NCBI GenBank assembly: GCA_048887225.1 | Contig: JBHLJY010000004.1 | Coordinates: forward strand, 160,001-224,000 | Length of the DNA: 64,000 nt | Source: Candidatus Hodarchaeota archaeon | GTDB lineage: Archaea; Asgardarchaeota; Lokiarchaeia; Sigyniarchaeales; SOKP01 | Reading direction: 5' to 3' | Program-made: the position numbers and the translations under genes | Shown here: positions 40,341 to 42,794 of the stretch, in pieces | How the letters are laid out: every line of letters starts with the position of its first letter | Numbering within the stretch: position 1 is the stretch's first letter | Notes under the pieces: model-generated | Database searches by the model: none | What the model was told of the DNA's origin: nothing | Seen by the model: only the letters and a program-made list of their open reading frames with translations

Positions 40341-40460
40341 ATGAAAATCACCAAAAAAGAAAAGAAGACAATTGCCGCATGCAAATGCGGTGGTGGTTGT
40401 GTTTCCGACAGCTGCAAGTGTGGCGGAGGTTGCATTTGCAAGTGTGGAGACAGCTGTTAA
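40341..40460 (+). CDS. 39-aa Cys-rich peptide, candidate RiPP precursor or metallothionein-like (absent from the ORF track)
   Basis: MKITKKEKKTIAACKCGGGCVSDSCKCGGGCICKCGDSC*; synonymous codon variation between the repeats; T-rich terminator follows. Confidence 0.85.
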   Translation: MKITKKEKKTIAACKCGGGCVSDSCKCGGGCICKCGDSC

Positions 40461-40576
40461 TTCAATAAACAATAATTAATTTACTTTTTTTTTATATTTT
40501 TTCCTCTTTTAACACAATAAAAAATTTAAGTAAATGTCATCTTTTTTTTAGTAATTAATATTGGAGAGAAAACTAA

Positions 40577-41083
40577 ATGTCTTATATGGATTATAGTAAA
40601 ATGTTTAGCTGTCCTCGATGTGGAGCTGAGGGGGCCATTTATCTTTTAAAAGTTGCTAAGGATAAAATTATTATAAAACAAAGATGTCCAAAACATGGAG
40701 GGAGAGCTTTTAAACTTCCTTTAATGCAAAAGGATCAGTTTATTTCTTATATTCGTGATGGAATTTTTCGGTGTTTCAAATGCGGGCAAGACGTTACTAC
40801 GGTGGATCATATAAAAGGATCAGGACCTTGGACCCTAATTAGATTAGCTTGTCCAACTCACAGAAATAAACTGCCTTTCCAAAAAATTTGGAATACTGTT
40901 TATTCTGAAATTTCTACCATGGCAGCTACAGCTCCACAAGCAGAACAATCACAAGCAGTAGAACCAACGCCAGAACAACCACAGCCTACTTCAAGCGAAA
41001 AAAAGAAGTTTTGCCCAAATTGTGGAACACCATTGGAGGGAGTAGAAGTATTTTGTGGCGCCTGTGGTGCTGAAATAGATTAA
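40577..41083 (+). CDS. Multi-zinc-ribbon protein
   Basis: Two CxxC...CPxH units, P/Q/E-rich linker, C-terminal CPNC...CGAC. Confidence 0.75.
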   Translation: MSYMDYSKMFSCPRCGAEGAIYLLKVAKDKIIIKQRCPKHGGRAFKLPLMQKDQFISYIRDGIFRCFKCGQDVTTVDHIKGSGPWTLIRLACPTHRNKLPFQKIWNTVYSEISTMAATAPQAEQSQAVEPTPEQPQPTSSEKKKFCPNCGTPLEGVEVFCGACGAEID

Positions 41084-41233
41084 ATTGAATCTTCTAAATT
41101 TTTTTTCCCATCTTTTATAATTCTCCATTTCTGAAGAATTTTATACTTTTCACCAACTCTTTCTACTTTATCTAAACGTCTTTTTTATTTTATTATCTTA
41201 ATATTTTTATTTAAAAAGATTTTACAATAACCA

Positions 41234-42508
41234 ATGAATCTTAATTATTATCCTTACGTTCCAAAACATATTGTTTTAAGGAGATATGACCAAATTAACA
41301 TTTATGATTTAAAGAATGATGAGTCATATGTAATTGACAACGAAGCTTATTCTGTTTTAAAGAATATTAACGGAACAAATTCAAATAAAGAAATTGTTGA
41401 AAAATATCATAAAAATAAACAAAAAGAAGTCATCGAAGCCTTAGATGATTTTCACGAATTAAATATTATCAATTTAAGTCAAAAAGCAATTACGGATACT
41501 TCAAAAATTTCGCTTGATCATATCGATATCTCAGATCAAAACCTTTTTGATCCTCCCTTTCTAAAAAACTTAATGATAAATATTACCGAAAAATGTAATT
41601 TAAAATGTAAGCACTGTTATATTGCTGATAAAAATCTCGTGGATTTTCCACTTGATAAATTAAAGGAGGTTATTAAAGATTTCTACCAATTTCAAGGAAT
41701 TAGATTAATATTAACGGGGGGAGAACCTTTTCTTTATTCTAAATTAAAAGACTTGTTGATTTTTCTTAAGGATGTTCCGATACAAAAAGTATTGTTATCA
41801 AATGGTTTATTAATTAAGGATAATCAGGAAATTTTAGATTTATTAAAAAACAATTATTTCGAGGTTTACGTTAGTGTTGATGGCTTAGAAGCATCTCATA
41901 ACGATTTTAGAGACGCTGATTGTTATAAAGACACAATTGATGGAATAATGATCCTTTTAGAAAATAATATAAATACTTCTATAAATACAATGGTTCATAA
42001 ACAAAATTTAAGCGAATTTGATGACCTTTTCAAGTTGTTAAATTCATTAGGGAAGATAAAAAATTGGTCAATTGATATTCCTACTTTTGATGACTCTACG
42101 CCACAATCAATTAAAGATAAATACGAGATATCCTTTGAAGAGGGAGGCCGAATATTAAAACATTATGGTTGGGGCGTGATTTTTGAATCTGAATCAGAAT
42201 CGAACGATTTTGCTTATGCGTGTGGACCACATCTCATGGCAATCGATGTTGTTGGAGTTATAACAAAATGCGGATTCTTTACAGAAAAGAGCGTTGGTAA
42301 TATATTCGACTTAGGAATTAAAAAAGGTTGGGAATTAATCCAAAAAAGCCTAAATTGGTGTCTAGAGGATTTAAAATGTAGTGAAGAGAATTGCAAATTT
42401 ATTGGAGATTGTCGTGGCGGTTGTAGATATAGAGGATTTAAATATACAGGAGATATTTATGGTGTAGATTCATTTAAATGTTATCAATTTGGTAAATTAA
42501 TCAAATGA
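41234..42508 (+). CDS. Radical SAM/SPASM protein with N-terminal PqqD/RRE-like domain (putative peptide maturase)
   Basis: CNLKCKHC, LTGGEP and SVDG motifs; SPASM C...GVITKC...C...CKFIGDCRGGCR...C; ~85-aa RRE-like N-terminus. Confidence 0.88.
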   Translation: MNLNYYPYVPKHIVLRRYDQINIYDLKNDESYVIDNEAYSVLKNINGTNSNKEIVEKYHKNKQKEVIEALDDFHELNIINLSQKAITDTSKISLDHIDISDQNLFDPPFLKNLMINITEKCNLKCKHCYIADKNLVDFPLDKLKEVIKDFYQFQGIRLILTGGEPFLYSKLKDLLIFLKDVPIQKVLLSNGLLIKDNQEILDLLKNNYFEVYVSVDGLEASHNDFRDADCYKDTIDGIMILLENNINTSINTMVHKQNLSEFDDLFKLLNSLGKIKNWSIDIPTFDDSTPQSIKDKYEISFEEGGRILKHYGWGVIFESESESNDFAYACGPHLMAIDVVGVITKCGFFTEKSVGNIFDLGIKKGWELIQKSLNWCLEDLKCSEENCKFIGDCRGGCRYRGFKYTGDIYGVDSFKCYQFGKLIK

Positions 42509-42548
42509 GATAAAATAAGAAAAAAATGGGAAAAAAGAGTTATTATAA

Positions 42549-42794
42549 ATGGCAAAAAAACATAAAGTAATAAGAACAGAGGATGACATTAGCCCATTAA
42601 ATAGGCAATTAATAGATGCTTTATGCCACAAATGTAATTTTTACGCGGAGGGTCAAGAATACTGGGAAAAAGAATATGAATGCGGGGCTTATAAGTTTAT
42701 TCGCCAATTATTACAAGATAAAAAGATAACTATAGACGAGATCGAAGATTTATTTAAGAAAATTGATTTAAATCCTGAAAGAGAATTAAGATAA
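42549..42794 (+). CDS. Small Cys-containing hypothetical protein, probably co-transcribed with the radical SAM gene
   Basis: LCHKCNFY...ECGAY; starts 40 nt after the rSAM stop. Confidence 0.7.
   Translation: MAKKHKVIRTEDDISPLNRQLIDALCHKCNFYAEGQEYWEKEYECGAYKFIRQLLQDKKITIDEIEDLFKKIDLNPERELR

Follow-up and report, generated by a model that had tools for sequence, protein, structure and literature searches.

In a 64,000-nucleotide stretch from a Candidatus Hodarchaeota archaeon (Asgardarchaeota, Lokiarchaeia; contig JBHLJY010000004.1, positions 160,001 to 224,000 of the forward strand; called the window below), three genes appear to form a maturation system for a peptide that is made on ribosomes and modified after translation (RiPP). 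One gene encodes a 39-aa cysteine-rich peptide, another a radical S-adenosylmethionine (SAM) enzyme with a SPASM domain, and the third an 81-aa protein that we call P81. We put at about 0.6 the probability that the peptide is the substrate of the enzyme, that the modification is likely a thioether, and that the product is a metal-handling peptide responding to nickel or cobalt. A sequence-only reading of this DNA had proposed a modified-peptide pathway, in which a precursor is matured by a radical SAM-SPASM enzyme carrying a RiPP recognition element (RRE). That proposal is supported by four observations: the co-occurrence of the genes across related genomes, the presence of single-unit versions of the peptide next to the enzyme in 11 of 13 bacterial loci, the RRE-like fold at the N-terminus of the enzyme, and the docking of the peptide leader onto that fold in a structural model.

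The putative precursor peptide

The genes of the system, with their proposed transcription signals, are the following (window coordinates).

40281-40287, plus strand: TATA-like box TTTAAAT of the peptide gene, putative promoter element
40341-40460, plus strand: precursor peptide gene, 39 aa, open reading frame (ORF) read from the window and its orthologues
40485-40493, plus strand: run of nine Ts (T9), likely archaeal oligo-T terminator, 25 nt after the peptide stop codon
41200-41210, plus strand: TATA-like box AATATTTTTAT of the operon of the enzyme and P81, 24-34 nt before the ATG, with no dual box (described below)
41234-42508, plus strand: radical SAM/SPASM enzyme, 424 aa (Pfam Radical_SAM, E = 1.5e-20)
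41234-41518, plus strand: part of the enzyme gene encoding the N-terminal RRE-like winged-helix domain, residues 1-95, assigned from its AlphaFold2 (AF2) fold, from alignment to SuiB and SkfB, and from docking
42549-42794, plus strand: 81-aa helper protein P81, with a CxxC...C pattern, directly downstream of the enzyme

The peptide has a basic leader of 13 residues free of cysteine, followed by three CKCGxxC units that bring the total to nine cysteines, the last of which is also the last residue. About 35% of the core is cysteine (9 of 26 residues), arranged in CxC motifs, and aromatic residues are absent from 11 of 12 aligned copies, the other one (G017) having Tyr11 and one linker Phe. The sequence-only reading had singled out this ORF with its basic leader and its three cysteine units, and it is indeed found in place on the plus strand.

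We find orthologues of the peptide in 20 genomes of the archaeal family. In the 12 aligned copies, M1, the nine cysteines, three lysines, three glycines and the C-terminal cysteine are all invariant, and the linkers between units range from 1 to 5 residues. The codons at the invariant positions vary freely, with TGT and TGC used at about 1:1 and with four different glycine codons. Because the ORF is kept in 20 genomes with free synonymous change, it is by all signs of its conservation a real gene selected at the protein level, and not a chance ORF.

Genes of this kind are mostly missed by gene callers: there are six called proteins among 5.8 billion clusters. The peptide has no match to any Pfam or NCBIfam family at E <= 1, metallothioneins included, although low-complexity filtering may hide weak matches.

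The peptide gene is probably its own transcription unit, since it has a conserved TATA-like box upstream, in which the TTTAAA block is invariant in eight aligned orthologous upstream regions, and the T9 run after its stop codon. Archaeal transcription terminates at oligo-T runs. A scan for sigma-70 promoters and hairpin terminators was uninformative, the host being archaeal. For the enzyme, a similar A/T box is found at equal distance upstream of the gene in other loci.

Some genomes depart from the standard form of the gene. G012 has a second copy on another contig (G012:C124:2826-2942). In G006 (L030 5473-5544) a stop codon leaves one CKCGxxC unit and 20 aa, and the G150 gene (G150:C117:2571-2657) has an in-frame TAA. 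The G006 and G150 forms are either decaying genes or natural single-unit variants inside the tripled lineage.

The radical SAM enzyme

The sequence-only reading had also called the gene at 41234-42508 a radical SAM enzyme, and the Pfam match given above bears this out. The CxxxCxxC motif of the radical SAM cluster is at C121, C125 and C128, and it is invariant in 33 homologues. The same reading had claimed a full SPASM domain. Here the Pfam SPASM model gives no match to the window enzyme at E <= 1, and only a weak one to a homologue (P0135, E = 0.0016). The claim stands, on the other hand, on the pattern of seven cysteines expected of SPASM domains (330, 346, 382, 387, 393, 397 and 416, spaced as C330-x10-G-x4-C346, C382-x4-C387-x5-C393-x3-C397 and C416), all invariant in the 33 homologues, and on the alignment to SuiB over residues 6-422.

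[quoted passage not shown] Its structural matches, with the root-mean-square deviation (rmsd) and the part of the model that is aligned, are as follows.

SkfB: Z 25.8, rmsd 4.8 A, 340 residues aligned, model residues 11-410
SuiB: Z 25.5-25.8, rmsd 4.1-4.2 A, 378-383 residues aligned, model residues 6-422
anSME: Z about 25, rmsd 3.2-3.4 A, about 304 residues aligned, model residues 109-424
CteB: Z 24.0, rmsd 3.3 A, 299 residues aligned, model residues 105-420

For CteB, the RRE region is aligned in the sequence profile alone (profile 25-416), as the structural alignment begins at model residue 105. Judged from the model, then, the closest structures are those of RRE-bearing RiPP maturases. The structural neighbors span several chemistries, including SuiB, anSME, the epimerase EpeE and PqqE.

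The N-terminal domain is modeled as three to four strands followed by three helices, with block pLDDT values of 88-97 over residues 1-100. The pLDDT is above 90 for the strands (13-17, 21-25, 30-34) and for the helices (36-42, 51-55, 60-75). As to the earlier claim of a PqqD/RRE-like N-terminus, the fold and the full-length alignment to SuiB and SkfB favor it, and the sequence signal is marginal: only 2 of 16 members give a match to Pfam PqqD, the better one with E = 0.017, and the PqqD structure 5sxy is matched at E = 0.14.

Among NCBIfam models, the enzyme matches many SPASM maturases, all below threshold, the best at 92.9 bits against a cut-off of 525. Scores and cut-offs are 59.7 and 850 for AlbA (aligned to enzyme residues 30-402), 63.6 and 625 for StsB (NF045574), 51.7 and 340 for PapB, and 50.3 and 300 for SkfB. 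Trusted cut-offs are not reached for any of the curated sactisynthase and ranthisynthase equivalogs (AlbA, StsB, PapB, SkfB, CcpM, ACGX, GeoRSP, ScmE/F), and the bacterial and archaeal homologues of the enzyme likewise fall far under those of the curated maturases.

Co-occurrence in the archaeal family

Enzyme orthologues with 53-63% identity are present in 13 relatives of the same family, and P81 lies directly downstream of the enzyme in 13/13 of the fetched loci, with 67-77% identity. The enzyme and P81 have identical distributions across 41 relatives.

We have extended the count to 135 genomes of the family, where P81 is found in 24 and the peptide in 20. The peptide is present in 20 of the 24 genomes with P81 and in 0 of the 111 genomes without it. 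Related genomes are not independent samples in such a count. We also observe, however, that the joint presence or absence of peptide and P81 varies within genera g1, g8 and g6, so the association does not come from a single ancestral event. The sequence-only reading had suggested looking at co-occurrence, and the outcome is that the peptide occurs only in genomes that have both the enzyme and P81.

The genomes with P81 and without the peptide are G014, with a contig that stops at the enzyme gene; the fragmented G051; G149, which has a P81 remnant and no radical SAM gene within about 5 kb; and G023, to which we return below. The usual place of the peptide gene is 0.1-9 kb upstream of the enzyme; in G001, G012 and G018 it is directly upstream.

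Homologous systems in bacteria and other archaea

An exhaustive, profile-free search with the enzyme returned 52 representative clusters at E < 1e-30, with sources that include Methanosarcinales, Thermodesulfovibrio and Archaeoglobi. A scan of species-representative genomes yielded 13 full-length bacterial loci, from Nitrospirota, Actinomycetota, Thermodesulfobacteriota and others. The lineages sampled that carry the module are anaerobic.

In 11 of the 13 bacterial loci the enzyme is adjoined by an ORF of 20-21 aa that aligns, with no gaps, to the leader plus the first CKCxxxC unit of the archaeal peptide. A leader and a core are thus encoded together with the enzyme, as expected of a cognate precursor. 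These ORFs came out of a search for a C-terminal CxCx(2-4)C pattern; an ORF filter requiring at least 25 aa and at least 4 cysteines had missed them. In the bacterial single-unit peptides M1, C14, C16 and C20 are invariant, K5 and K15 are nearly so, and the C-terminal residue is a cysteine in 9/11. No Pfam or NCBIfam family matches the bacterial 20-mers. Other Asgard families and classes have the same trio of genes with a single-unit peptide, and with an enzyme of 33-37% identity.

Because of this gapless alignment, we conclude from sequence comparison that the Lokiarchaeial peptide is a lineage-specific tripling of a 7-residue core that is shared across domains. What the wide family conserves in this core is three cysteines and mostly one lysine; Gly17 is not conserved.

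The helper protein P81

P81 has four invariant residues: H5, C26, C29 and C45. Its family amounts to 118 clusters with 64-100% identity, and each named source is Promethearchaeota/Lokiarchaeota. No Pfam or NCBIfam family matches P81, and its AF2 model of three helices is weak (pLDDT 67.5). An Atlas search with P81 gave unnamed bacterial clusters and nothing else (0.90-0.92), which we take as a lead only.

Several bacterial enzymes are extended at the N-terminus by about 100-200 residues, in which there are two Cys-rich repeats. Aligned to these two repeats with hhalign, P81 obtains probabilities of 83% and 69%. Run against a small search set, the P81 profile picks up short ORFs that lie directly upstream of actinobacterial enzymes (E from 6e-6 to 5e-4). 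The profile of the bacterial extension, for its part, matches P81 at 5e-5 and, in other Asgards, the P81-like proteins at about 1e-5 to 3e-11. In total, a P81-like domain is fused or adjacent to the enzyme in 9 of 13 bacterial loci, which makes it common but not universal. In the other four loci, all from Nitrospirota (L045, L047, L048, L051), no P81-like domain was detected, and two of them (L047 and L048) keep the 20-aa peptide.

By these profile comparisons P81 is homologous to the Cys-rich domain that bacterial enzymes carry as a fusion or have as a neighbor. Since a homologous domain is fused to the enzyme in bacteria, P81 is expected to work physically with the enzyme. The small CxxC...C protein that the sequence-only reading had counted as a member of the cluster has therefore kept its place. 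Two side observations concern this part of the loci: G043 has two copies of P81 in tandem (G043:C486:7723-8191), and L048 has a gene for a YacG-like zinc finger directly upstream of the enzyme.

Docking of the leader

RREs bind leaders on the beta3/alpha3 face, and in the model of the complex between peptide and enzyme the leader sits on that same face of the RRE-like domain. The interface that is modeled with confidence is between peptide residues 1-12 and enzyme residues 30-35, 37-41 and 65-78. The complex scores 0.63, compared with 0.02 for the best control, and the runs have a contact agreement of at least 39% and a partner pLDDT of at least 40. Of 80 solved complexes, 58 attain a mark of 0.63, as do 2 of 110 mismatched pairs. 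The co-folding that had been suggested as a check on the leader and the RRE thus came out in favor of the pairing. Similar complexes, such as SuiB-SuiA, have already been solved, and the good score may in part reflect likeness to them; a docked model is not a demonstration of binding.

A promoter element shared with a nickel/cobalt importer

Upstream of the peptide gene we observe a dual box, TCATAYT-N14-TCATAYT, which occurs at one other place in the window.

40234-40261, plus strand: dual box, putative operator of the peptide gene, with its end 19 nt upstream of the TATA box
49222-49249, plus strand: second dual box, 30.7 bits, separated by 3 nt from the TATA-like run that follows it, that of cbiMNQO
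49317-51976: cbiMNQO operon, an importer of nickel/cobalt of the energy-coupling factor type (CbiM 2.7e-54, CbiQ 2.9e-29, ABC ATPase 8.6e-33)

Exact matches in the window are limited to these two sites. The dual box is found upstream of the peptide gene in 8/8 aligned orthologous loci, with the second box ending about 19-22 nt before the TATA box. It is also found, at 28.5 bits, at the unlinked peptide gene of G147, and in L028 the peptide has a dual box of its own (28.5 bits, opposite strand) in a divergent intergenic region that it shares with the enzyme gene. Counting the window, four genomes keep the dual box before cbiM, the other three being those of L022, L029 and L030.

With a position weight matrix (PWM) built from the sites, the peptide site scores 30.5 bits and the cbiMNQO site 30.7, as listed. 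No other site in the 3.27-Mb genome exceeds 30 bits, and the next one has 22.3. None of the weaker PWM sites of the genome (17-22 bits) stands before a plausible member of the regulon, and in the genera without the peptide (g8, g11, g2) there are only low-scoring matches, under 20 bits.

Which factor could bind such a box? The genome has one NikR homologue (NikR_C, 57.3 bits, over the cut-off), and the half-site of E. coli NikR is TCATAC, the same as the hexamer of the dual box (PMC7055735). The sharing of the dual box with cbiMNQO suggests, from promoter sequence, that the peptide has a role linked to nickel or cobalt. The sequence-only reading had guessed at an intracellular metal, redox or signalling role; the metal part of that guess gains support from the shared box, and the role itself is still one that we infer.

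Several further promoters are worth describing here. In G149 a dual box of 28.9 bits is located 9 nt before a gene start (L136 1150-1530, minus strand; G149:C7). From its translated N-terminus, we take this gene to encode a chelatase subunit of the ChlI/BchI type that has a Cys-rich insert. This dual box has a TATA-like spacer, which suggests a leaderless transcript under the same regulator. The peptide promoters of other Asgard families have no TCATAYT box, and by eye they have TATTAC-type repeats. L149 (about 6760-6800) has TATTACT direct repeats, again 14 nt apart; in L147 (about 6700-6760) an inverted GTAATAC...GTATTAC pair flanks the TATA box; and the region upstream of 1361 in L150 is another such promoter without TCATAYT. 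These repeats may be lineage variants of the same operator. In the cbiMNQO operon, a 102-aa protein with two transmembrane segments and a PDGLE-like motif stands in place of a recognizable CbiN.

A proposed mechanism and its alternatives

In the mechanism that we favor, the basic 13-residue leader would bind as an added strand to the RRE-like N-domain of the enzyme, and the enzyme would modify each CKCGxxC unit by radical chemistry, together with the Cys3/His protein P81. By analogy with StsB, CteB, PapB and CrpC, the likeliest reaction would be the formation of one intramolecular thioether per unit, of the sactionine or ranthionine type. The product would probably stay inside the cell with its leader attached, since no protease or exporter is linked to the genes. 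Its synthesis would respond to nickel or cobalt status, which is the most likely signal because the dual box otherwise marks only the nickel/cobalt importer cbiMNQO, and the product would be a thiol-rich peptide that binds or handles metal. In this account we infer that the peptide is modified at all, and also the chemistry, the regulator and the link to metals, whereas the genes, their conservation and co-occurrence, the domain architecture and the shared box are shown by the data above.

A number of results weigh against this reading. G023 is 97% complete and has the enzyme and P81 with no detectable peptide, and it stands as the one real exception to the co-occurrence. In its placement the peptide gene is not constant either: three genomes of the genus have it inverted, and two genomes have it on a separate contig. 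In the loci examined, the enzyme operon is without a dual box (best upstream score <=3.2 bits), and the direct repeat that the boxes form differs from the inverted operator of E. coli NikR. The exact count of dual boxes in the genome (2) is not above that of a reversed-pattern control (1+1), and because of this the case for the dual box rests on its conservation and on the gap in PWM scores. As to chemistry, that of the enzyme is not transferable by homology, given how far it falls under every curated maturase cut-off, and with Gly17 unconserved and a core that keeps three cysteines and mostly a lysine, no acceptor residue stands out. Moreover, the formation of thioethers would use up thiols that metal binding requires.

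There is also a more ambitious version of the favored reading, in which the system is a cross-domain maturation module whose product is a tailored nickel/cobalt-binding peptide. In one Lokiarchaeial family the core would have been tripled and the gene brought into the regulon of the nickel/cobalt importer, and one factor could then shut off import at cbiMNQO, where the box abuts the TATA element, and switch on the peptide, at whose gene the box is about 20 nt upstream of that element. We hold this version only tentatively, and would sooner bet against it than for it.

How else could these genes be read? The peptide could be the substrate for a different chemistry: epimerization, Cys oxidation of the anSME type, MftC-like chemistry at the C-terminal cysteine, or a Lys C-C or C-N crosslink. 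The varied chemistries of the structural neighbors (a Lys-Trp link in SuiB, Cys oxidation in anSME, epimerization in EpeE, and PqqE) speak for it, as do the low scores against all curated families and the fact that the C-terminal residue is a cysteine in 12/12 archaeal and 9/11 bacterial copies, with Lys15 nearly invariant. But Cys-rich cores paired with RRE-SPASM enzymes have so far turned out mostly to be thioether systems (PMC10288494, PMC13692751), and a strictly C-terminal chemistry could not apply to all units of the tripled peptide, where units 1 and 2 are internal. We regard a non-thioether chemistry as unlikely, if well worth keeping in mind. Less probable still is that the peptide is a scaffold for a small cofactor or a metal cluster, as in mycofactocin and PQQ, or a cluster carrier, with the enzyme building or transforming a metal or Fe-S center held by the three cysteines of a unit and the Cys3/His set of P81. 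The end product would in that case be something other than a crosslinked peptide. The compactness of the module, with no protease, exporter, immunity gene or recurrent bacterial neighbor, would suit such a scaffold. So would its anaerobic hosts, the matching Cys3 signature of each peptide unit and P81, and the tie of the peptide gene to metal regulation. A scaffold, however, would need a peptidase for cofactor release and some dependent enzyme, neither of which is linked to the module, and the tripling of the core is a better fit for a stoichiometric binding peptide than for a cofactor precursor.

The two remaining alternatives take the peptide out of the role of substrate. It might be an unmodified, metallothionein-like binder of nickel, cobalt or zinc, whose association with the enzyme is mere conserved synteny. 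Its composition fits (a core that is about one third cysteine, CxC motifs, no aromatic residues), and so do its own promoter and terminator and an operator that is shared with cbiMNQO and missing from the enzyme operon. Yet it matches no metallothionein family at E <= 1; it is never found without both enzyme and P81; it has a conserved, Cys-free leader that the complex model places on the RRE; and inherited synteny cannot account for the three-Cys, single-unit homologues that adjoin the enzyme in distant bacterial phyla. An unmodified metallothionein is on these grounds very unlikely, while metal binding as the function is plausible. Finally, the enzyme could act on P81 and not on the peptide, in a protein-level crosslinking as in QhpC/QhpD or CrpA/CrpC. 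P81 is after all the most tightly linked partner, adjacent in every one of the 13 archaeal loci and well conserved, and it has conserved Cys and His. But the fusion of its bacterial homologue to the N-terminus of the enzyme better suits an accessory domain, the four Nitrospirota loci lack a detectable P81-like domain while two of them retain the peptide, and the RRE docks the leader of the peptide in the model. We consider P81 a highly improbable substrate. The reading with the peptide as the substrate of a thioether-forming enzyme remains the one that we prefer.

Neighboring genes

Between the peptide gene and the enzyme there is one more gene, which the sequence-only reading had listed as a member of the cluster.

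40577-41083, plus strand: zinc-ribbon protein, 168 aa, several zinc-ribbon motifs (Pfam Zn_Ribbon_1, E = 2.9e-8)

We have dropped it as a component, since none of the 13 orthologous loci contains a homologue. For the same reason it looks like an insertion, seemingly recent, in this genome only. No protease, exporter, immunity gene or other recurrent neighbor is linked to the module in either the orthologous or the bacterial loci. The cluster is flanked by genes for Ras/Rab-like small GTPases at 39622-40158 (Pfam Ras, E = 1.5e-31) and 43834-44361, syntenic in the genus. Two further groups on the minus strand, both read from their translations, are unrelated to the peptide system: two adjacent small ORFs at 42851-43745 of the hot-dog (MaoC-like) type, and two paralogous acyl-CoA synthetase-like genes at 44523-48139 (570 and 566 aa).

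Comparison with known systems

We see these genes as a new family within the known RRE-dependent radical SAM maturation of peptides, and the system is apparently undescribed. Literature searches on Asgard RiPPs and radical SAM enzymes, on archaeal metallothioneins, on the core motifs, and on ranthipeptides, SPASM and archaea found no description of it; Pfam and NCBIfam have no model for the peptide or P81, nor one that captures the enzyme. If the preferred reading is right, the radical SAM peptide maturation systems would gain a family with an unstudied Cys-rich helper domain, and with precursors (a 13-residue leader plus a 7-residue core) among the smallest known. It would extend over Asgard archaea, other archaea and several anaerobic bacterial phyla. 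Its product would be a rare one for RiPP-type systems, tied by regulation to nickel/cobalt homeostasis and not to antibiosis, and would open a testable way into how Asgard archaea, a difficult group for experiments, handle metals. For work on the chemistry, the bacterial 20-mers are a very simple substrate.

The closest general likeness is to CteA (SCIFF) and CteB, PapA and PapB, and SkfA and SkfB. In these systems, as in ours, the enzyme combines an RRE-like N-domain and a radical SAM core with a SPASM domain of seven cysteines, and the precursor is small, its leader being joined to a Cys-rich core that is partly repetitive. Nevertheless, the identity over aligned residues is about 16-22%, and the NCBIfam scores of the window enzyme for PapB and SkfB are far below the cut-offs. 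Different here are the CKCxxxC core, the extra partner domain with its Cys3/His set, precursors some of which have only 20 aa, the distribution over Asgard archaea and anaerobic bacterial phyla, and the lack of a transporter or protease.

The formation of thioethers by radical SAM enzymes is documented both on CxCxC cores and on an archaeal Cys-rich protein (PMC10288494, PMC13692751). StsA, modified by StsB, is the CxCxC-type case: every cysteine of its core is linked by a thioether to the alpha-carbon of a glycine (PMC10288494). An invariant glycine is likewise found in the archaeal CKCG units, but it is not conserved in the bacterial single-unit peptides. StsB, which is related to MftC, depends on a separate RRE protein, StsC, and the window enzyme is far from its family by score (63.6 bits vs. 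625, NF045574). The archaeal case is the CrpA/CrpB/CrpC system of Methanococcus voltae, where an RRE-radical SAM-SPASM enzyme makes a repetitive Cys-rich product and a small companion aids the modification (PMC13692751). A metal-related role is suspected there from expression on pyrite (PMC13692751). CrpA differs in its size, 28.8 kDa, and in having CxxQ/D motifs and ten repeats of 17 residues. The family of CrpC, TIGR04463, is absent among the 25 best NCBIfam matches of the window enzyme, and the companion CrpB resembles the substrate and not the enzyme, unlike P81.

With metallothioneins the peptide has in common its small size, a core that is about one third cysteine, CxC motifs and the absence of aromatic residues. 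It differs from them in its conserved Cys-free leader, its strict co-occurrence with a radical SAM maturase, and its three-Cys single-unit homologues. On the side of regulation, the parallel is with Helicobacter pylori, where one regulator, NikR, governs an importer together with the small nickel-storage proteins Hpn and Hpn-like (PMC7055735). Hpn is His-rich and unmodified, and the boxes described here, 21 bp apart, are arranged as a direct and not an inverted repeat. What the two cases have in common is one type of operator placed before a nickel/cobalt importer and before the gene of a small peptide rich in metal ligands.

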